Virus record (IMG/VR): IMGVR_UViG_3300037420_000416
DNA length: 60,742 nucleotides
Origin: a virus
Direction: 5' to 3' (one strand)
In this document: positions 16,332 through 60,742 of the stretch, in pieces
Layout of the letters: every line of letters begins with the position of its first letter
Numbering within the stretch: position 1 is the first letter of the stretch
Translations under genes and position numbers: made by a program
Notes under the pieces: model-generated
Database searches by the model: none
What the model was told of the DNA's origin: nothing
Seen by the model: the letters and a program-made list of their open reading frames with translations, nothing else

Positions 16332-16742
16332 ATGGCAACGTATACATTCGAGCACGAGACCGCTCTGACGTTCATCGAAAAGATGCTGCGCGCGCTGACT
16401 GAGCGGCCGATGACGCGCGCCGAGATGCAGCAGCGTCTCTTTGCCAGCAAAACGAAGATGCTGGCGTATATCCGCTTCCTTCATCATGGCACTGGACAGC
16501 CGAAGCGCATCTACATCGCTAGCTATGACGAGCGCGAGACTGGCGGCAGAAATCCGCGTTACGCCGTCGGCGACAAGGATGATGCGCCGCCGCTCGGCGC
16601 GAAGACCATGGCTCAACGTCACGCGATTCGCAAGGCGGATCCCGAAAAGCACCGGCGGCATCTGGCGAAGCTGCGCGCAGCAGCCGCGGCAAAACGATCA
16701 AGGGCTAAGCCGGTGACTTGGCTGTCAGCACTGGGGATCTGA
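16332..16742 (+). CDS. Hypothetical early protein, possible winged helix (136 aa)
   Basis: Track ORF with GGGAG upstream and a basic C-terminal tail. Confidence 0.55.
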   Translation: MATYTFEHETALTFIEKMLRALTERPMTRAEMQQRLFASKTKMLAYIRFLHHGTGQPKRIYIASYDERETGGRNPRYAVGDKDDAPPLGAKTMAQRHAIRKADPEKHRRHLAKLRAAAAAKRSRAKPVTWLSALGI

Positions 16743-16744
16743 TC

Positions 16745-17659
16745 ATGAAAGCAATCGACCTTTTCGCCGGCGCCGGCGGATTCAGCACCGGTGCCCGCAT
16801 GGCTGGTGTTGACGTCGTGTGGGCAGCGAACCACTGGCCAGCCGCCGTCGCTATCCATTCGCAGAATCATCCGGGCGCAGCGCACGCATGCCAGGATCTG
16901 CACCAAACGAACTGGCAGGACGTGCCGGCGCACGACATCCTGATGGCATCGCCGTGCTGTCAAGGCCACAGCAGGGCGCGCGGCAAGGCCAACGGCAACC
17001 CGCAGCACGACGCCAGCCGCTCTACGGCATGGGCGGTCGTATCGGCGGCCGAGTACCACCGGCCTGCGTTCGCCGTGATCGAGAACGTGCCCGAGTTCAC
17101 GCGCTGGGCGCTGTATCCGGCGTGGTGCGCTGCGATGGATGCGCTGGGGTACGCGCTGACGCCGATGATCGTGGACGCCGCGGATCACGGCGCGCCGCAG
17201 CACCGGGAACGCCTGTTCATCGTGGCGGCCCGGGCCAAACACCCGCTCATGATCGACCTTCCGAAGCAACCGCATGTGCCGGCCAGCAGCTTCATCGATT
17301 TCGGCGCCGGGAGATGGCAGCCGATCGAGAAGCCGGGCCGCGCTGCGAACACGCTAGCGCGCATTGCCGCCGGCCGCGCCGCGCACGGCGACCGCTTCAT
17401 CAGCAGCTACTACGGCGCCGAAAAAGGCGGACGATCGATTGCGCGTCCCGTCGGCACCATCACCACCCGTGACCGCCACGCGATCATTGACGGAGATCGC
17501 ATGCGCATGTTCTCGGCGCAGGAATGCCGGGCCGCGATGGGCTTCCCGGCCGACTACATCCTGCCGGCCGCGCACCGGGACGCCGTACACATGCTGGGTA
17601 ACGCTGTGGCGCAGCCGGCCGCACGCGACGTCATCACGGCGATGCTGGAGGCTGCATGA
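16745..17659 (+). CDS. DNA (cytosine-5)-methyltransferase no. 1 (304 aa)
   Basis: In the frame of track ORF 16718..17659. Motifs: DLFAGAGGFS (I), SPCCQGHS (IV), VIENVPEF (VI), QHRERLFIV (VIII), LGNAVAQP (X). Confidence 0.9.
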   Translation: MKAIDLFAGAGGFSTGARMAGVDVVWAANHWPAAVAIHSQNHPGAAHACQDLHQTNWQDVPAHDILMASPCCQGHSRARGKANGNPQHDASRSTAWAVVSAAEYHRPAFAVIENVPEFTRWALYPAWCAAMDALGYALTPMIVDAADHGAPQHRERLFIVAARAKHPLMIDLPKQPHVPASSFIDFGAGRWQPIEKPGRAANTLARIAAGRAAHGDRFISSYYGAEKGGRSIARPVGTITTRDRHAIIDGDRMRMFSAQECRAAMGFPADYILPAAHRDAVHMLGNAVAQPAARDVITAMLEAA

Positions 17660-52549: not shown

Positions 52550-53647
52550 TTAATGCTCGATCACCTGCCAATCACCTCTGAGATCATGATACTTGTCGGT
52601 CATGGCGGCGGTCTTATGACCCAACATCGATTGGGCGAACGCGGCGCCGAACTGCTCACGATACAGCCGCTCCGACAAGCTCCGGATCTCATGGAAGGTT
52701 GGTGGTGTGCGACCTTCGGCCGCCTTAATGCCCGCCGCCTTGCGGGCGCTCTGGAAGGCGTTCGACAGACCGTTGCTCGTCACCCGATCGCCAGGCTTTG
52801 CTGATCCCTGGTGCTCGACGTGGTGCACAAGGTACTGTGTTGTGATGAGGTCGCGGCATGCCTGAACGGCTTCGCCGATCGATACACCTACCTTATCTAG
52901 CCGGATCTCGCCGCTTAGCCGAAGCTTCACGGTCCCATTGCTCTTGCCTTGGGTGATGTGCAAATATCCTTCGCGCCAGTCCGAAAACTTCAGGCTCGCG
53001 ATGTCGTCGCGGCGCTGAGCAGTGGTTAGGGCGAGATACATCGCGCGCTGGAGCCACTTCGGCGCCTTGGCGTGGATCGCATGGAACTGGTCGAGCGAAA
53101 GGCGCTCGCGCGTCACCTGCGGCCTCGGCGCCCTGGTTGCTGATACCGGATTGCGTCCGACCTCAATCAAGCCTTGTGTCTCGGCCCAGCGGAATACGTC
53201 GCTCATGCGCGTTCGCACCGCGTTGGCGGTCGCCTTGCCACTTTCCTTTTCCACGTCCTCCAGAAACCTCGCCACGTGAGCCGTAGAGATATCCTGCAGG
53301 CGCCGCTTGCCGATATCCGCCTCGGCCATGCGCTTGACGTACATCGTGCAGGAGCGAATCGTATTGTCGCGCGGCTTCTTCTTCTCAAGCCACAATTCCT
53401 TGTACACCGGCAGCCATCCTTCCAGGGTGTACTCCGTCTTGCCCATCACCCAGTCGACGAGAGAGGAGGGCTTGCGCGTTGCCAGCGCGGCGTTCGCGGC
53501 GCGCGCTTCCTGCACGGCATGCGCCTTGTCCCGGCCAAGCCCTTTTTGCGTTTTCTCCACCGGATTGCGGTAATAGAAATACCCCGCCGGGTTCTGGTAC
53601 AGGTTCGGCGGCAGGGCGCGATTCTTGGCAAGTCGTCGACGTCCCAT
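52550..53647 (-). CDS. int: Tyrosine integrase (365 aa)
   Basis: Track ORF. ...ALTTAQRRDDI..., FHEIRSL, MLGHKTAAMTDKYH supply the R...HxxR...Y catalytic signature. Confidence 0.92.
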   Translation of the reverse strand: MGRRRLAKNRALPPNLYQNPAGYFYYRNPVEKTQKGLGRDKAHAVQEARAANAALATRKPSSLVDWVMGKTEYTLEGWLPVYKELWLEKKKPRDNTIRSCTMYVKRMAEADIGKRRLQDISTAHVARFLEDVEKESGKATANAVRTRMSDVFRWAETQGLIEVGRNPVSATRAPRPQVTRERLSLDQFHAIHAKAPKWLQRAMYLALTTAQRRDDIASLKFSDWREGYLHITQGKSNGTVKLRLSGEIRLDKVGVSIGEAVQACRDLITTQYLVHHVEHQGSAKPGDRVTSNGLSNAFQSARKAAGIKAAEGRTPPTFHEIRSLSERLYREQFGAAFAQSMLGHKTAAMTDKYHDLRGDWQVIEH

Positions 53648-54132: not shown

Positions 54133-54450
54133 TCACGTACCACATGACGGGCTCCGGGCGTTGTCCTTGAATTCGTCAGGATTGGTCAAGCCTTTGATGT
54201 TCCCAACCCGTGCGTTAGCCAGTTCCAAATTGCGCCGCGCTGCTATGACCCTTGCTTGCGCATCAGCGAGCATCGAGGTGCGTGCTTCTTCCCACGTTTC
54301 AAAGAAGTCCTTACGCGAACGTTTCAGTTCTGATGGCACGGACCATCGTTTATCAATGTAGGTAACAAAGCTCTTCGTCAGCTTTACTACTTCCACAGGT
54401 TCGATCGATACGCCGTATCCAACCTTGAACATAATTTTTTTCTCACTCAT
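54133..54450 (-). CDS. Hypothetical early protein (105 aa)
   Basis: Track ORF, ATGA-coupled to lar. Confidence 0.55.
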   Translation of the reverse strand: MSEKKIMFKVGYGVSIEPVEVVKLTKSFVTYIDKRWSVPSELKRSRKDFFETWEEARTSMLADAQARVIAARRNLELANARVGNIKGLTNPDEFKDNARSPSCGT

Positions 54451-54827
54451 GCTTCCTTCTCCCTGGCGTTGTGCGCTTCGATAGCGTCGGCAGCACGAAG
54501 CGGGCTTCCGATCAGGTCATGCTTCTTGAGGTAGGCGGTCGCCTTCGTTGGCATTTCGTGCTCGGGTGCGGCCTTCTTCAGCGCGTACGACAAGCGCGCG
54601 ATCAGTAACGCCATATCTGGAATCCTCGGCCCAGATGCGGTAGCCACACGTCGGTTCCAGACGGCTATGGCGGAAGCAGCATCTGTACCGTTTGGTCCAG
54701 TCGTAGTGCAGTCCTTGCACTGGCAATATGCGTCCGGTTCTTTGTCATTGGGTAATGGTGGGTGGACCCATGTCGTAATATTCACGCTTCCACAAAACGG
54801 ACATAGCTTGAGTTCTTCGGTGCTCAT
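54447..54827 (-). CDS. lar: Lar-family restriction alleviation protein (126 aa)
   Basis: Track ORF. LKLCPFCGSVNITTW...YCQCKDCTTTGPNGTDAASAIAVWNRR parallels Rac Lar (KPCPFCG...KCNGCESRTGYGGSEKEALERWNKR). Confidence 0.7.
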   Translation of the reverse strand: MSTEELKLCPFCGSVNITTWVHPPLPNDKEPDAYCQCKDCTTTGPNGTDAASAIAVWNRRVATASGPRIPDMALLIARLSYALKKAAPEHEMPTKATAYLKKHDLIGSPLRAADAIEAHNAREKEA

Positions 54828-55826: not shown

Positions 55827-56215
55827 TGCGGTCCTTTCGTGTCGTGAGATGCAGCGCTGCCGGCGCTTGCGAACAGGTCGAGCGTATGCTCGTCCTTGGT
55901 GGCCGGGATGGGCTGGCCAGCTTCTACGAATGCCGTGCAGCGCGGTTGCCCATCAGCGCCGTACTGCCATTCCTGCGGATAGTCGGGATGGTCGACGGCC
56001 AGCATGTATGTTTTCCCGATCAACTCGCAGATCTGGTTGTCGTCGCATTCTTCCAGCGGCAGGCCGGCCATCATGCCGTGGTCGCGCTCGCATTGGGCGC
56101 ACCACGCATCTATGAACAGCGCGCCCTCCGTGCCGTTACCCGGGCGGTATTTCTTCCCTGCGCGCTCCTTGTTCATCTCGGCCCAGGATTCCGGGTATAT
56201 GGCGATGGTCTTCAT
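55823..56215 (-). CDS. Cys-containing hypothetical early protein (130 aa)
   Basis: Track ORF. ...YRPGNGTEGALFIDAWCAQCERDHG... Confidence 0.55.
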   Translation of the reverse strand: MKTIAIYPESWAEMNKERAGKKYRPGNGTEGALFIDAWCAQCERDHGMMAGLPLEECDDNQICELIGKTYMLAVDHPDYPQEWQYGADGQPRCTAFVEAGQPIPATKDEHTLDLFASAGSAASHDTKGPQ

Positions 56216-57396
56216 TTCGCCTCCTGTGCCGCGCTGGAGGAGATTGCTGCGCGGTCGAGGTCGTCATCTATGATCGTTGCAAGGCGTTCTGCCGCCCGAT
56301 TCGCTTTTTTGCTGAACGAGTCAAAGTCACCCCGTATTTCTCCCGGCCCCACCAGTAAGAAATTTGCAGGCACTTTGAATGACGTATCCTCGCCAGCATT
56401 CGCTGCACGTGACGCTCCCTGCTGGGCGAGGACTGCTCGAATGCGCTCTGCCGTTGGGTTAGGGACCGGATAATCTCCCTCGGCACGGATCAGTTCGGCG
56501 TGATCGTCGTGCTGTTTCAGTACTTCGCGCAGCAATCGAATGGGTGTATCAATCCTGCATGCGTCAACTTGGATGTAGAACTTGATCGCCGCCCGAAGTG
56601 CATTTACTACGTAGCGGTGGCCCAAGCTTGTCAGACTGCCGGGCGGCATAGCTTCGCTGAACTCTGCGTGTGCGCCTTTCAGGAAGGCGTCGTTCACGAC
56701 AGCTTGCTCGCTCGCGCTTGCCGTGGTGGCCGCAGGCGATATCACCGTCGTGCTGGTGCCGTTGGCATAGTTGACGGCCCGGTTGTAATCAGTGAGATCG
56801 AGTTTCGCCTCCCCGTCCATCTGGCTGACTGCCTGCTGCGCGGCCGGTGCAGCAAGCTTGTTGTGTAGCCGCTTGGCGTCGGCGAACAGCTTACCCATGT
56901 CACACTCCAACTTGTCGCCGTTCGGGCAGGTCCCATCCTCGTCGGCGCAGTCACGGCATAAGGGGCGCGGTCGCTTGTCGAGCGCTTCAGCGCATTCAAT
57001 CAGTCGACGCAGAGTGTAGATTTCATCTTGCGTCAGGGCAGGTGCCTCTGGCGCGTCTTTCTGGCTGACTGCGGGCGATGCGAGGGCGACGCGGTCCACG
57101 ATGTACTTCACGATGCGAGCGTCCGATTCGGCCTTCTCAGGTTCTCGGCCAGTGGACAGGATGCATTCACCGATCCAATCGTAAGCGTCTTTCATCGCAG
57201 CCTCTAATAGTGCGGAAGCGTTCAAGTGCTCATCTCCTGCCGCAACGCTCGGCTCTGCGCGGCGGGCGAGGAGATAGGCGTCGCCAATCATCGCGCACTC
57301 GTCTGCCATGCGCGGGCACGGTGCTTTCAGTCGGTCTACGCCGCATTCCGGGCATAGAAGCTTGTCCAGGTCGAGACCTGCGGTCTGGTTATCCAT
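56212..57396 (-). CDS. Orphan early protein (394 aa)
   Basis: Track ORF, coupled at both ends. It contains several CxxC-like pairs. Confidence 0.6.
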   Translation of the reverse strand: MDNQTAGLDLDKLLCPECGVDRLKAPCPRMADECAMIGDAYLLARRAEPSVAAGDEHLNASALLEAAMKDAYDWIGECILSTGREPEKAESDARIVKYIVDRVALASPAVSQKDAPEAPALTQDEIYTLRRLIECAEALDKRPRPLCRDCADEDGTCPNGDKLECDMGKLFADAKRLHNKLAAPAAQQAVSQMDGEAKLDLTDYNRAVNYANGTSTTVISPAATTASASEQAVVNDAFLKGAHAEFSEAMPPGSLTSLGHRYVVNALRAAIKFYIQVDACRIDTPIRLLREVLKQHDDHAELIRAEGDYPVPNPTAERIRAVLAQQGASRAANAGEDTSFKVPANFLLVGPGEIRGDFDSFSKKANRAAERLATIIDDDLDRAAISSSAAQEAK

Positions 57397-58105
57397 TGTT
57401 ATCTCCAGTCAGAATTTTCCATGCTGTTGCAGCCACTCGCGGGTCTTGTCCGTTCCCAATGGCGCGGTTCCGCTCCATCCGATCGGCCATCCCATCAGGC
57501 TTTCCCAGAAATCCGGGTTCACATACAATTTCCCGATTGGCGAGTTGCGCAATTTGTTCAGGCTTCCGCCAACCTCCTGGAAGGTTCCGCCCCAATGGCT
57601 TGAGCCATGGCATGGAGTCGGCCACGATCCAGATCCTTTGCCTTCCGTGATCGGCGCCCAGGTCGTCAGATCCAAGCACTCCCCATCGTGCATCGAACCC
57701 CATCGAGGCCAGATCCCCGAGAACTCGACCAAGTCCCCGAGCAGTGAGCATTGGCGAGTTCTCCACACGGACGAAGCGGGGTCGAACTTCGCGAACGATC
57801 CTGGCCATTTCCACCCACAGTCGGCTTTGGTCGCCCTCGATGCCGGCTTTCTTCCCGGCGGAACTGATGTCCGTGCAGGGAAACCCGCCAGATACCACGT
57901 CAGCAATGCCATTCCATGGCCGTCCGTCGAAGGTACGAACATCGTCCCAAATGGGGAACGGTGGCAGGTGGCCTTCATTCTGTCGCTGCATGAGTCTTCG
58001 GGCACAGAAGGCATTGATTTCCACGGCACAGACTGTGCGCTCTCCGAGCAATTGGCCCGCGAGTATTCCGCCTCCAGCGCCTGCGAAAAGTGCCAGCTCA
58101 TTCAT
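57389..58105 (-). CDS. DNA (cytosine-5)-methyltransferase no. 2, short form (238 aa; frame A)
   Basis: Track ORF 57389..58294. AGGAAGG lies 5 nt before ATG 58105. Motifs: ALFAGAGGG (I), GGFPCTDIS (IV), RVENSP (VI), RQRIWIV (VIII), NRAIGNGQDPRVAATAW (X). Confidence 0.8.
   Translation of the reverse strand: MNELALFAGAGGGILAGQLLGERTVCAVEINAFCARRLMQRQNEGHLPPFPIWDDVRTFDGRPWNGIADVVSGGFPCTDISSAGKKAGIEGDQSRLWVEMARIVREVRPRFVRVENSPMLTARGLGRVLGDLASMGFDARWGVLGSDDLGADHGRQRIWIVADSMPWLKPLGRNLPGGWRKPEQIAQLANREIVCEPGFLGKPDGMADRMERNRAIGNGQDPRVAATAWKILTGDNNG
57409..58101 (-). CDS. 230-aa ORF fully overlapping the methyltransferase on the same strand in another frame (frame B)
   Basis: Track ORF. Its ATG lies 4 nt after the frame-A ATG (ATGAATGAGC). 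It has Trp/Ser-rich, non-junk composition, with blocks GFPARTS, WRTRQCSLL, WPRWGSMHDGEC, SGSWPTP and NPDFWESLMGWPIGW. See the finding on this overlap. Confidence 0.4.
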   Translation of the reverse strand: MSWHFSQALEAEYSRANCSESAQSVPWKSMPSVPEDSCSDRMKATCHRSPFGTMFVPSTDGHGMALLTWYLAGFPARTSVPPGRKPASRATKADCGWKWPGSFAKFDPASSVWRTRQCSLLGDLVEFSGIWPRWGSMHDGECLDLTTWAPITEGKGSGSWPTPCHGSSHWGGTFQEVGGSLNKLRNSPIGKLYVNPDFWESLMGWPIGWSGTAPLGTDKTREWLQQHGKF

Positions 58106-60023
58106 CGCCGCCTTCCTGGGTGTTAGCTGATCCAGTCTGGAGAGCCGGCGCTTTGCCGCTCCACTTGGCATCAGGGCTGGGACGCTTGAAGCTGCCGCAC
58201 CACCCGTGCTGCTTGCCGCACTCGCAGAACGGCTGGCGGTCAGACAGCGTAGCCGGGTCGAGCGAGTAGCGGCCACAATACGAGCACCGCGCAATCGCGC
58301 CTTCGTCGTGGCGATGAGTCGCTGGGATTCCGTTCAACGGCTCGTGCGCGCTGCGCACTTCCTCGGCCTCCTCCTGATTGCGGATTGCCTCGGCGTTCTG
58401 TGCGACGGCCGACTTTGCGCATACGCGAATGTAGTCGGGGTCTTTGAGCATTTCGGCAACCCAGCCTTGCAAGCTTTCCTCGCTCACAATGTCGCCTTCG
58501 TGATGGTCGATCATGAAGCCTGGGAACAGATCCCAGCGAACGCCATCGATCGGCTGGGCGTTCTGTGCGCCGGCAGGAGCTGCCGGAGCGGCGAGGTAGA
58601 GTTTGTCGCCACATTTGAGCGGCGATCCATCAGGCCCGTAGATGATGTCGATGAACAGACCGTCATCGCCTTCGTCCACAACAGCCACCGGCTCGGCCTG
58701 CGCCTGTCTTGCCAGATGGGCGCGAAGCTCGGTAATTTCGGCTTCAGCGGCATCAAGTGCAATCGTCGCGCGGTCGCCGCGATCCATCCAGTAATGCACT
58801 TGATTTACGAGCTGTGCACATCGCGCATCAGCATCACCGGGAGCGTCCGGATGGATAGGCTTCCCGGTAAGCATGTTGAAGCCAATGGCGGCATCCTCAT
58901 GACCTGCTTTGTACATGTCACGCCACTGTTCGTCGTACTGGTCCTGCGTCCACATATGCTGGCCAGTTACGCGGTCGTGCCATACGCCGTGATCCATAAA
59001 GAATCGCTGATCGGCGGCCTGTGCGACGACTTTAAGGGCGATGGACTCCGGGAAATGCTCGGAACGCACGAAGCGCAATTGCTGTTCTAGGGCGTCGAGT
59101 CCAGCGACGTTCTCAAAGCGCAGGCGAACTGCCATTGCCTCGGGCTGGACCATCGCATCAGGCGCATTGTCGCGGGTGTCGCCAACAGTGCGGCCGGCCT
59201 TTTCTTCGTCGGTGGCGACACTGATAACCAGTTCGGCGAGCTCGCCCTTCGCGCTATGATTAATGACGTATGCGCCGATGCCAAGATGCGCATAGCCTCG
59301 GAAGTGCGGGGCAACCACAAACCCATCCGTCACATGCGGCTGCTCTGCTTTCGGCTGGCGTGCCAGATAGGCGGCAATAGCAGCGCGGGCGACGTCGTTG
59401 GCGAACGCACGGTAGTCCTCGATACCGCCCAGGCCCGCATACCTGCGTGCTACGTCGTCGATCGCCTCATCCGTCAGATCGCCGGTCGGCTGCGGTACTG
59501 CGTAGTTGATGGAGGTCAGTTCAGCCAGAAGCTTGATAGCGGCGTCGTGGCGGGTAGCCATGTCGCGGCTTCCGTTTACCATCGTGACGTTGATCTCGTC
59601 GCAGTTCACACCATCGGCGTTCAGTCGATAGATCAGCGATTGGTCGACCATCCAGCCGTCGCGATCTACCGGCTTTGCAGCAGGAGCGGCGAGAAGACGC
59701 TCGACGTCGGCAAAGCGGATGTATTCGCCGTCGCTTGACTCCTCCATGAAGTAGCTGTATTCGCCGTCGCCCAAGTAGTCCTTGGTGAAGTCAAAGCGCG
59801 CCAGTCCTTCAAGGCCCTTGCCGCCATCCTCGCCCATCATCTTGCCGGCCATCGACAGAATGCCTTTCAGCGTACCGGCGACAGCGTATTTCTGAGGCGA
59901 CGCTCCCGGGATCATTGCAACAGCAGTGCTGACGAGGGGCTGATAGGCAAGCAGTTTCGCGCCTGCTTCTGCAAACGCGTTCGCAAGGGCGGTGCGGTTC
60001 TCGGTGAATTCTCGGTTGCTCAT
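58098..60023 (-). CDS. Orphan early protein (641 aa) with C-terminal Cys cluster
   Basis: Track ORF, coupled to ninB upstream and the methylase gene downstream. C-terminus CSYCGRYS...CECGKQHGWCG. Confidence 0.7.
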   Translation of the reverse strand: MSNREFTENRTALANAFAEAGAKLLAYQPLVSTAVAMIPGASPQKYAVAGTLKGILSMAGKMMGEDGGKGLEGLARFDFTKDYLGDGEYSYFMEESSDGEYIRFADVERLLAAPAAKPVDRDGWMVDQSLIYRLNADGVNCDEINVTMVNGSRDMATRHDAAIKLLAELTSINYAVPQPTGDLTDEAIDDVARRYAGLGGIEDYRAFANDVARAAIAAYLARQPKAEQPHVTDGFVVAPHFRGYAHLGIGAYVINHSAKGELAELVISVATDEEKAGRTVGDTRDNAPDAMVQPEAMAVRLRFENVAGLDALEQQLRFVRSEHFPESIALKVVAQAADQRFFMDHGVWHDRVTGQHMWTQDQYDEQWRDMYKAGHEDAAIGFNMLTGKPIHPDAPGDADARCAQLVNQVHYWMDRGDRATIALDAAEAEITELRAHLARQAQAEPVAVVDEGDDGLFIDIIYGPDGSPLKCGDKLYLAAPAAPAGAQNAQPIDGVRWDLFPGFMIDHHEGDIVSEESLQGWVAEMLKDPDYIRVCAKSAVAQNAEAIRNQEEAEEVRSAHEPLNGIPATHRHDEGAIARCSYCGRYSLDPATLSDRQPFCECGKQHGWCGSFKRPSPDAKWSGKAPALQTGSANTQEGGDE

Positions 60024-60412
60024 GCTGTCTCTTTCTCGCTTTGGTTGAACTGCACGTTTTGCTGTGCGCCGAATGCCTGGATCAGTTCCAGCAGGTCTGA
60101 CATCTCGCGCTTGGTCATGCTGCTGGTGGACTGGCCAAGGACAACAAAACCGCCATCAAGGCCCGGAACCACGTCTTGCTTTTTCAGCGATGACGAGAAG
60201 ATGTGCTTCCACGACTCCGGGCTCAGGCGCCGGCCGTGCCATACAACTTGGTCGCTTACGTCGGTCAACATGGCCCACATGGCGGCGTTCTGCTCAAGGT
60301 TACGGGTCGGCTCGGACACGGTGACGCAGTAGCCGACCGGCGCTTCCTCAACGAATCGCAGCGCGTTACGCCGAGCCTGATCGTGAGCCAAAATGAACGT
60401 ACGCTTAGCCAT
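60020..60412 (-). CDS. ninB: NinB/Orf-family recombination mediator (130 aa)
   Basis: Track ORF 60020..60688 with ATG 60412. LEQNAAMWAMLTDVSDQVVWHGRRLSPESWKHIFSSSLKKQDVVPGLDGGFVVLGQSTSSMTKREMSDLLELIQAFG closely parallels lambda NinB (LDQNRKLWACLGDVSRQVEWHGRWLDAESWKCVFTAALKQQDVVPNL...VVIGQSTSRMRVGEFAELLELIQAFG). Confidence 0.85.
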   Translation of the reverse strand: MAKRTFILAHDQARRNALRFVEEAPVGYCVTVSEPTRNLEQNAAMWAMLTDVSDQVVWHGRRLSPESWKHIFSSSLKKQDVVPGLDGGFVVLGQSTSSMTKREMSDLLELIQAFGAQQNVQFNQSEKETA

Positions 60413-60636
60413 CACGCCATCACTTCCCGGCGCAGCGCAGCGAAGTCCAGGCCCTGCAGCCTGTCGATCATTTCGTTGTGCGTCAGGTCGAACACTTCGA
60501 CCAGTGCGTCGACGATCTCGATGTCGGTCGGCTCGTCGCTGAAGACGTCGGCCGCGTCGACCAGGTGTGGATACTCGGTAGCGCCGGCGTCGTGGAGGAA
60601 TTGGGCTACCAGTTTGTTGGCGTGTGCGAGGGTCAT
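60412..60636 (-). CDS. Acidic hypothetical protein (74 aa)
   Basis: Track ORF. Its ATG overlaps the exonuclease stop (ATGA). Confidence 0.55.
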   Translation of the reverse strand: MTLAHANKLVAQFLHDAGATEYPHLVDAADVFSDEPTDIEIVDALVEVFDLTHNEMIDRLQGLDFAALRREVMA

Positions 60637-60742
60637 GCTGCCACCTCATTGGCTTGGACTGCGTTGATGTGACGGACCAGGGCGGCACAGATTGCCGGGA
60701 AATCCGACTCGTGATACAGCTTGGCCGACTTGTCGGTGGCCG
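60633..60742 (-). CDS. 3' end of the YqaJ-like exonuclease gene (the same ORF as 1..1760, via the circular junction)
   Basis: Stop TGA at 60633-60635. 60652-60742 duplicates 1-91. The frame is continuous (1779 nt in total). Confidence 0.8.
   Translation of the reverse strand, partial: ATDKSAKLYHESDFPAICAALVRHINAVQANEVAA
60652..60742. repeat. Terminal direct repeat, copy 2 (identical to 1-91)
   Basis: Same reading as for copy 1. Confidence 0.95.

Follow-up and report, generated by a model that had tools for sequence, protein, structure and literature searches.

M.EcoHK31I from Escherichia coli HK31 (Lee, Kam and Shaw 1995) is a natural two-polypeptide C5-cytosine methyltransferase, in which the beta chain is encoded wholly inside the gene for the alpha chain, on the same strand and in another frame (PMC2836561, PMC3404938). 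Its alpha chain harbors motifs I to VIII, motif X, and the target-recognition domain (TRD), and its beta chain harbors motif IX; both chains are needed, and the enzyme is active when they are expressed from separate genes (PMC2836561, PMC3404938). In M.AquI, the two chains are split within the variable region, with motifs I to VIII on alpha and motifs IX and X on beta (PMC3404938). Here, we analyze a locus on the minus strand of the IMG/VR virus record IMGVR_UViG_3300037420_000416, which was studied as a single stretch of 60,742 nucleotides (hereafter, the window). The locus contains two open reading frames (ORFs), A and B, which begin 4 nt apart and occupy almost the same bases in different frames. 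It probably encodes a two-polypeptide C5-cytosine methyltransferase from one stretch of DNA and, as judged by its layout, would be a widespread, fully co-extensive variant of the known, rarely recognized M.EcoHK31I-type architecture.

The locus resembles M.EcoHK31I in that its large chain, A, carries motifs I to VIII and X and in that B is nested in the A gene, on the same strand and in another frame, in the window and in the related loci described below. In contrast to M.EcoHK31I, B is co-extensive with A (230 of 238 codons), beginning 4 nt later from the same ribosome-binding site, and the variable region, consisting of WPTP modules, lies in B, with the middle of A being unconstrained. Furthermore, M.EcoHK31I forms part of a restriction-modification system, whereas the window gene is an orphan methylase of a prophage. 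The chains of M.EcoHK31I comprise 176 and 309 amino acids (aa). With M.AquI, the locus shares the two-chain organization of a C5-methyltransferase, but motif X is found on the catalytic chain A and the overlap is total. M.HhaI and M.HaeIII, both of the single-chain type, as well as an ordinary C5-methyltransferase encoded elsewhere in the window (16718..17659), have the fold of the large domain as well as motifs I, IV, VI, VIII, and X in common with A, whereas A contains about 50 unconserved residues, predicted to be disordered, instead of the TRD and motif IX.

Two frames behind one ribosome-binding site

Read on the minus strand, positions 58117..58093 are AGGAAGG-CGGCG-ATGAATGAGCTGG, where a Shine-Dalgarno-like heptamer precedes both start codons (Table 1). 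Besides the two ATGs, the dual start motif ATGAATGAG contains two TGA stops in the remaining two frames. Frame B is located wholly inside the coordinates of frame A, and B residue i lies over A residues i+1 and i+2. A preliminary description of this DNA had reported two ATGs 4 nt apart (58105 and 58101) behind a single AGGAAGG, a frame A of 238 aa with FAGAGG, GFPC, ENS, RQRIW, and IGNGQ, and a frame B of 230 aa with a series of characteristic blocks. All of these elements, including every block listed for B, are present in the sequence, as are the paired blocks that share the same nucleotides (WRTRQ/VENSP, AGFPA/GGFPC, and PLGTDK/IGNGQ, B given first) and the codons GGG AAC GGA CAA for GNGQ. 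Its claim of an unusual GC content at third codon positions (GC3) held only in part: the GC3 was 0.58 in A and 0.68 in B; the majority of the long window ORFs lie at 0.72 to 0.82, yet the genes on either side of the locus reach only 0.65 to 0.68, and the contrast is modest.

Conservation of and selection on both frames

The window has a GC content of 60% and contains numerous long alternative-frame ORFs, for example, over its ordinary methylase. In synonymous-codon shuffles of the window A gene, the +1 frame was free of stops in 2.2% of cases (P ~0.02). An open second frame in the window is by itself mildly improbable, which is suggestive only. These figures speak for the alternative that only A is a gene and that B is a shadow ORF arising from composition, codon bias, or a constraint at the nucleic acid level, as does the naive per-frame ratio of nonsynonymous to synonymous rates (dN/dS), which was ~1 for B. 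This ratio was set aside as uninformative because the synonymous sites of B are first codon positions of A. With a chance probability of ~0.02 from the window alone, significance must come from related loci.

A collection retrieved through B from viral contigs and one genome per species comprised 163 loci, and both frames, with B in the +1 register of A, were present in all of them. Since these loci had been found through B, a second collection was assembled with A as the only entry point, by means of the peptide patterns [NR]ELALFAG and GFPC[QT]DIS. This resulted in 80 loci with 48 to 80% identity to the window A, of which 79 have a +1 frame that is open and co-extensive with A; the remaining one runs off its contig.

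The absence of stops was then quantified with synonymous shuffles that preserve the codon usage of each gene. Among 154 complete loci, no stop was observed in the +1 frame, as compared to ~4.4 expected per gene, and the mean probability of a stop-free +1 frame was 0.013; the +2 frame of the same loci contained 13.7 stops per gene. Over the first 160 codons of B, 3.06 stops were expected and none was seen in 92 non-redundant loci. In the reverse test on the same 92 loci, in which B was shuffled synonymously, 2.7 stops were expected in the A linker (54 to 207 codons) and again none was found; for linkers of at least 115 codons, the probability of lacking a stop was ≤0.03 in 14 of 16 loci.

Asn-2 of A is encoded by AAT, the codon that creates the ATG of B, in 69/69 genes retrieved through A, whereas elsewhere in the same genes AAT accounts for 37% of the Asn codons (337 AAC versus 202 AAT). 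The B ATG was present in 154 of 164 loci, in most of them 4 nt past the A start, and NTGAATGAG(C/T)TGG was the dominant start context. Among 102 non-redundant related loci, 80 have a Shine-Dalgarno-like core ahead of the A start, mostly at a distance of 3 to 7 nt.

Column conservation in the B frame exceeded that imposed by A in the N-terminal (0.59 versus 0.41), middle (0.31 versus 0.20), and C-terminal (0.67 versus 0.38) parts, in a comparison tempered by a shuffle control that leaves phylogenetic relatedness in. Conditional substitution rates were determined for 23 independent close pairs following an OLGenie-type logic. For A residues 2 to 158, omega_B (dNN/dNS) was 0.49 (95% confidence interval, 0.41 to 0.56) and omega_A (dNN/dSN) was 0.18 (0.15 to 0.22). 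The corresponding values were 0.42 (0.20 to 0.70) and 0.82 (0.53 to 1.12) for A residues 159 to 198, and 0.33 (0.24 to 0.44) and 0.23 (0.18 to 0.30) for A residues 199 to 232. Estimates of omega_B from dSN/dSS were concordant, with 0.36, 0.27, and 0.26 for the three regions, and over the large-domain stretch A1-166 omega_A was 0.14 to 0.18 and omega_B was 0.36 to 0.49. Both frames are under purifying selection, and the constraint is dominated by A over the catalytic domain and by B in the middle, with both frames constrained at the 3' end.

These comparative data contradict the option, left open in the preliminary description, that only one frame is real. The conditional rates place omega_B far under 1, a value outside all of its confidence intervals; in the middle region, B is conserved more strongly than A; and the B start codon is kept against codon preference. 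Furthermore, B is open in loci that range from 37 to 69% GC, the +2 frame is full of stops, and the comparable alternative-frame ORF over the ordinary methylase (16819..17472) is rich in Arg, Ala, and Pro. We thus consider a shadow ORF highly improbable. Taken together, the homologues, their overlap with A, the missing stops, and the conditional rates support the dual-coding constraint that had been suspected. A sequencing or assembly frameshift in the window was also considered as a source of the second frame and was rejected, since neither ORF is truncated and hundreds of independent assemblies share this layout.

Chain A, a truncated C5-methyltransferase

Chain A matched the Pfam family PF00145 (6.8e-26) with its residues 4 to 162, which correspond to profile positions 4 to 160 of 324, and phrog_363 of PHROGs (1.8e-52); the NCBIfam model TIGR00675 scored 68 bits, under its cutoff of 100.65. 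In a search of PDB sequences, M.HaeIII and M.HhaI aligned with A residues 1 to 161 only, and an hhalign comparison with the family of the ordinary methylase of the window covered only motifs I to VIII. Motif I (FAGAGGG, A7-13) aligned with motif I of M.HaeIII and M.HhaI, and motifs IV (GFPC, A74-77), VI (ENS, A115-117), and VIII (RQRIW, A155-159) aligned to M.HaeIII. Residues P76, C77, E115, N116, R155, and R157 are invariant among 81 A homologues, and so are G217, G219, and Q220 of AIGNGQDP, a segment that was assigned to motif X by pattern and position, as Pfam and hhalign stopped short of it. The helix that follows GNGQ (A222-233) was predicted with a local confidence score (pLDDT) of ~84, and omega_A over the motif X segment was 0.18 to 0.23.

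The AlphaFold2 (AF2) model of A, built from 81 sequences, had a pLDDT of 73.6 overall and of 86 to 96 across most of residues 1 to 166. Foldseek placed it over ~167 columns on the large domain of M.HhaI and M.HaeIII, with template modeling (TM) scores of 0.60 (normalized to the query) and 0.45 (normalized to the target). In the linker (A167-217), the pLDDT was below 50 and column conservation was 0.15 to 0.48. A TRD and a motif IX between motifs VIII and X were not found on chain A by Pfam, by TIGR00675, in the AF2 model, in the conservation profile, or in the selection data (omega_A of 0.82). The partial coverage by Pfam, PDB, and hhalign, together with the AF2 and Foldseek results, indicates that A comprises the large domain and motif X but no TRD or motif IX.

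Chain B, a candidate second subunit

Residues 43 to 164 of B matched phrog_1008 (6.4e-22), a PHROGs family labeled "DNA methyltransferase." A word-index search retrieved 803 homologous proteins at E ≤ 1e-3 among 926 scored candidates, most of them with 230 to 240 aa, and in an exhaustive profile search, the E ≤ 1e-3 threshold was passed by 25,951 clusters (50% identity) and the E ≤ 1e-30 threshold by 4,170 of them. The proteins that the preliminary description placed beside or fused to methylases are instead read from the methylase gene itself: at every locus examined, the B homologue lies over a methylase frame, again in the +1 register. One metagenomic protein (P0073, 240 aa) is a chimera, with an A-type beginning (MNELALFAGVGGG...GFPCTDIS) followed by B sequence (...SFAKYNP..WRTRQ..WPTP..LMGWPIGWT). 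Of the B matches listed, it alone has a PF00145 domain; a frameshifted assembly is its probable origin.

The best-kept segments of B are ESLMGWPIGW (conservation of 0.85), IWPRWGSMHD (0.72), SWRTRQ, WPTP, and the tail PL.TDK...W...H. Within WPTP, at least 90% of 88 homologues share P161, T162, and P163. Longer homologues (290 to 390 aa) contain repeated (W/L/F)PTP...D/G..GG modules, and these WPTP-type repeats are placed between a WG.M..GEC block and LNP...EWLMGWP.GWT; the length of the A linker follows the module expansions of B, with frame A staying open. The block with the highest conservation in B (residues 194 to 209, Table 1) showed an observed conservation of 0.84, as compared to 0.40 expected from A alone. 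Its LNPxxxExLMGWPxGW shares the spacing L-(T/N)-P-x6-M-G-(F/W)-P with canonical examples of motif IX, namely, MFSAQECRAAMGFPADY of the ordinary methylase of the window and VVSVRECARSQGFPDTY of DNMT1. In the tail, which overprints motif X of A, P214, L215, W223, and H227 are conserved.

Since the conserved C-terminal part of B sits where A is unconstrained, B most likely binds A as its small DNA-recognition domain, by analogy with M.EcoHK31I. Several points weigh against this assignment. The resemblance to motif IX is confined to a short pattern and remained below significance in every test: a 28-column profile of the block retrieved no methyltransferase from PDB, only a designed repeat protein, and an hhalign comparison of the B family with the family of the ordinary methylase gave a probability of 0.06, in a weak test given the shallow canonical profile (74 to 97% identity). 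The full-length B profile showed no methyltransferase homology among PDB sequences, and no family match to B was obtained from Pfam (E ≤ 1, including PF00145) or NCBIfam. The AF2 monomer of B, modeled with 88 sequences, had a pLDDT of 46.7, only the last 40 residues reaching 60 to 69, and Foldseek found no meaningful structural neighbors of it. Furthermore, the TRD of M.EcoHK31I is assigned to alpha and not to beta, and the likeness to that enzyme is one of layout as described. About 10 of the 163 loci have one frame interrupted (see below), and the translation of B, its association with A, and its role in DNA recognition are inferred.

The same observations bear on the possibility that B is a real, translated protein but no methylase subunit, being instead an overprinted accessory gene with a function in, for example, anti-defense or regulation. 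Overprinted viral genes often code for accessory proteins, searches detected no homology between B and any family of methyltransferases, and the B model is largely unstructured. Such a function would, however, leave A without the domain that characterized C5-methyltransferases need for DNA recognition, and the best-conserved part of B coincides exactly with the gap in A and looks like motif IX. In addition, the variable middle of B expands in modules as TRDs do, with the A linker following passively, and M.EcoHK31I provides an experimentally proven precedent of the same layout. An accessory role of B thus appears unlikely.

Occurrence in phages and bacterial genomes

Searches of phage genomes by tblastn with A and with B led to the same places, under annotated cytosine methylases. 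The A and B locus was found in phages of Vibrio, Salmonella, Klebsiella, Pseudomonas, Ralstonia, Stenotrophomonas, Synechococcus, Microcystis, Mycobacterium, and Bacteroides. In three unrelated phages with a locus GC content of 43 to 53%, both ORFs are full length and B begins with MSW, its ATG being located 4 nt past the A start or inside NELALFAG.

Internal B-type ORFs were also detected in Paenibacillus phage Lily, in the mycobacteriophages Che9d (gp80) and Rhynn (gp83), in Microbacterium phage MoxS-R1, and in Bacteroides phage BX788P2. Like the window B, they lie in the +1 register and contain (D/G)FPA(R/N)xS, YDP..S.(K/R)T.Q, GSM.NG, (W/L)PTP, and NPxxxE(W/L)LMGFPxxWT. Unlike it, they comprise 163 to 198 aa and start 32 to 66 codons inside A, whereas in the clade of the window an upstream extension of ~45 residues takes B to a conserved MSW start beside that of A. 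The phrog_1008 family was matched by gp63 of Lily (5.8e-44) and also by the B ORFs of Che9d, Rhynn, MoxS-R1, BX788P2, S9-5, and a Vibrio phage. Among the nine phage records examined, Lily (NC_028841.1, 37796..38560; L247) is the only one that annotates the second frame, as gp63, "g62 internal gene," with the product DNA methyltransferase. A comparative paper on Paenibacillus phages lists both gp62 and gp63 as DNA-cytosine methyltransferase, and no discussion of their overlap was found in the Paenibacillus phage literature searched. A full-text literature search found no description of a phage-wide family or of the co-extensive form, which is weak evidence of absence as most subscription journals lie outside it.

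Complete genomes of E. coli contain a copy related to the Salmonella phage S9-5 locus in 4 of 5,426 cases (H121 to H124). In the RefSeq/PGAP annotation of these copies, only frame A is recorded, as "DNA cytosine methyltransferase."

Among 102 related loci, there were 76 cases in which a long upstream ORF ends on either TGA of NTGAATGA. The first TGA of NTGAATGAG was used in 35 cases and the second in 41; with two starts and two TGA in 9 nt, an upstream gene in any frame stops on one of the starts.

The interrupted loci were of several types. Three of them, on viral and genome contigs (L039, L065, and L111, whose genes begin at 2997, 2587, and 2997), show a rotation of the frames within the variable region: B terminates behind WPTP (172 to 184 aa), a B-type C terminus (NP...E.(L/M)MxxP..WT..PLE..(K/R)F..W) continues in the frame of the catalytic domain, and the third frame holds motif X (RVDR.KA.GN.QVP). 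Indel errors, decay of the copies, or partial fusion could account for them. In four others (L138 and L142, at the same position, "VANAT*T"; L024; and L094), the A linker is broken by an in-frame stop, beyond which motif X is still conserved in that frame, and L094 and L138 have an ATG a few codons past the stop. The motif X peptide might be made separately at these loci, resulting in three pieces, or the stops might reflect recent inactivation. A is interrupted and B intact in L092 (stop in GGFPC*D) and L131 (stop at "IIREV*"), and the opposite was observed in L061 (stop at B residue 61).

The rotated loci, in which a B-type C terminus is in frame with the catalytic domain, are in line with the idea of a single chain produced by programmed frameshifting, that is, A for motifs I to VIII, a +1 shift into B for the TRD and motif IX, and a -1 shift back to A for motif X. 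The motifs would then follow in the canonical order (I to VIII, WPTP, IX-like, X). This scenario, which the preliminary description had mentioned as a frameshift joining the frames, fits the anatomy poorly. It requires two shifts per chain, and it leaves without a need the first 160 codons of B (stop-free in the 92 loci, as shown above), the conserved B ATG at the 5' end, and an A frame that is open through linkers of up to 207 codons. Moreover, the IX-like block and GNGQ would be separated by ~10 residues, as compared to 16 in the two canonical examples, and M.EcoHK31I works as two separate chains. On the basis of the open frames, the B start codon, the motif spacing, and the precedent, we consider a frameshifted single chain very improbable.

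Gene context

The locus lies in a prophage early region, with genes for a tyrosine integrase, a Lar-like protein, and NinB (Table 1). For the flanking ORFs of 641 and 394 aa, no informative family matches were found, only weak PHROG matches; the C-terminal end of the 641-aa ORF is Cys-rich (CSYCGRYS...CECGKQHGWCGSF). The nearest protein relatives come from Massilia, other Oxalobacteraceae, and soil metagenomes. Opposite the methylase gene, there are two antisense ORFs, 57308..58126 (plus strand, 272 aa) and 57078..57650 (plus strand, 190 aa), which are presumed to be compositional. The ordinary methylase of the window is encoded on the plus strand as a 313-aa single chain that includes motifs IX and X in its own frame; the prophage thus has two cytosine methylases of differing architecture. 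In the flanks of 249 loci and the window, no ordinary methylase was found except that of the window itself.

Table 1. Coordinates of the features of the A and B locus and of neighboring genes in the window
Feature	Coordinates	Strand	Description
Frame A coding sequence	58105..57389	minus	238 aa, stop 57391..57389, predicted catalytic subunit of a C5-cytosine methyltransferase
Frame B coding sequence	58101..57409	minus	230 aa, stop 57411..57409, +1 of A, putative second subunit
Shine-Dalgarno-like AGGAAGG	58117..58111	minus	5 nt 5' of A ATG, 9 nt 5' of B ATG
Dual start motif ATGAATGAG	58105..58097	minus	A ATG 58105..58103, B ATG 58101..58099
A residues 1-166	57608..58105	minus	predicted S-adenosylmethionine-binding/catalytic large domain; same bases as B residues 1 to ~165
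A residues 167-217	57455..57607	minus	linker, unconserved, predicted disordered, in place of TRD and motif IX
A residues 205-233, GMADRMERNRAIGNGQDPRVAATAWKIL	57407..57493	minus	motif X (by pattern and position) and predicted helix
B residues 160-163, WPTP	57613..57624	minus	conserved where A is unconstrained
B residues 194-209, VNPDFWESLMGWPIGW	57475..57522	minus	motif IX-like block, highest conservation in B (0.85)
B residues 210-230, SGTAPLGTDKTREWLQQHGKF	57412..57474	minus	conserved B tail overprinting motif X of A
Upstream 641-aa ORF	58098..60023	minus	TGA 58100..58098 overlaps B ATG as ATGA
Downstream 394-aa ORF	56212..57396	minus	ATG 57396..57394 overlaps the final codons of A
Tyrosine integrase	52550..53647		
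Lar-like protein	54447..54827		
NinB	60020..60688		

Proposed mechanism and implications

In the two-polypeptide model, ribosomes recruited by the single Shine-Dalgarno sequence, or terminating on the upstream gene, would start at the ATG at 58105 to produce A or at that at 58101 to produce B, and termination-reinitiation at the ATGA could feed both starts. Chain A would provide the catalytic large domain (motifs I to VIII), a disordered tether, and a motif X helix that closes the cofactor pocket; its linker is unconstrained in sequence yet kept open, so that translation reaches motif X. The C-terminal 100 residues of B, with the WPTP region and LNPxxxExLMGWPxGW, would correspond to the part that ordinary enzymes have between motifs VIII and X, and B would serve A as M.EcoHK31I beta serves alpha. 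The N-terminal ~125 residues of B may be a read-through leader over the catalytic domain of A that permits the shared start site. This leader appears to be under moderate selection of its own, perhaps for docking on A. As to its origin, we speculate that a compensating pair of frameshifts around the TRD and motif IX of a single-chain gene was followed by upstream extension of the shifted frame. Whether such loci form a very large and ancient class of cytosine methylases with two obligate subunits, found as thousands of clusters in many bacterial phyla and their phages and with B overprinted over its full length, is a broader claim for and against which we see the evidence as evenly balanced.

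Gene callers and the NCBI pipeline forbid long overlaps on the same strand. Annotation usually records one of the two proteins, and the B family is without a Pfam or NCBIfam model despite its ~26,000 clusters, although hundreds of phages and prophages preserve the two frames. A prediction of specificity made from A alone would be based on a chain that lacks a recognition domain. With ~690 nt read in two frames and with A-dominant, B-dominant, and joint regions, the locus offers a natural experiment on how overprinted sequence acquires function, and its two starts at a distance of 4 nt behind one ribosome-binding site represent a simple system for the study of start-site partitioning. Naturally split methylases have already been used as scaffolds for targeted methylation (PMC2836561), and a large family of split methylases would widen the choice of scaffolds. 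If the broader claim of a large two-subunit class is correct, the choice of the start at a single ribosome-binding site (NTGAATGAG) would set the subunit ratio in this clade, and ~125 residues of B would be de novo sequence that was born over a catalytic domain and is now selected. The A and B genes would then be among the longest and most widespread same-strand overlapping pairs in prokaryotes, systematically missed by standard annotation.

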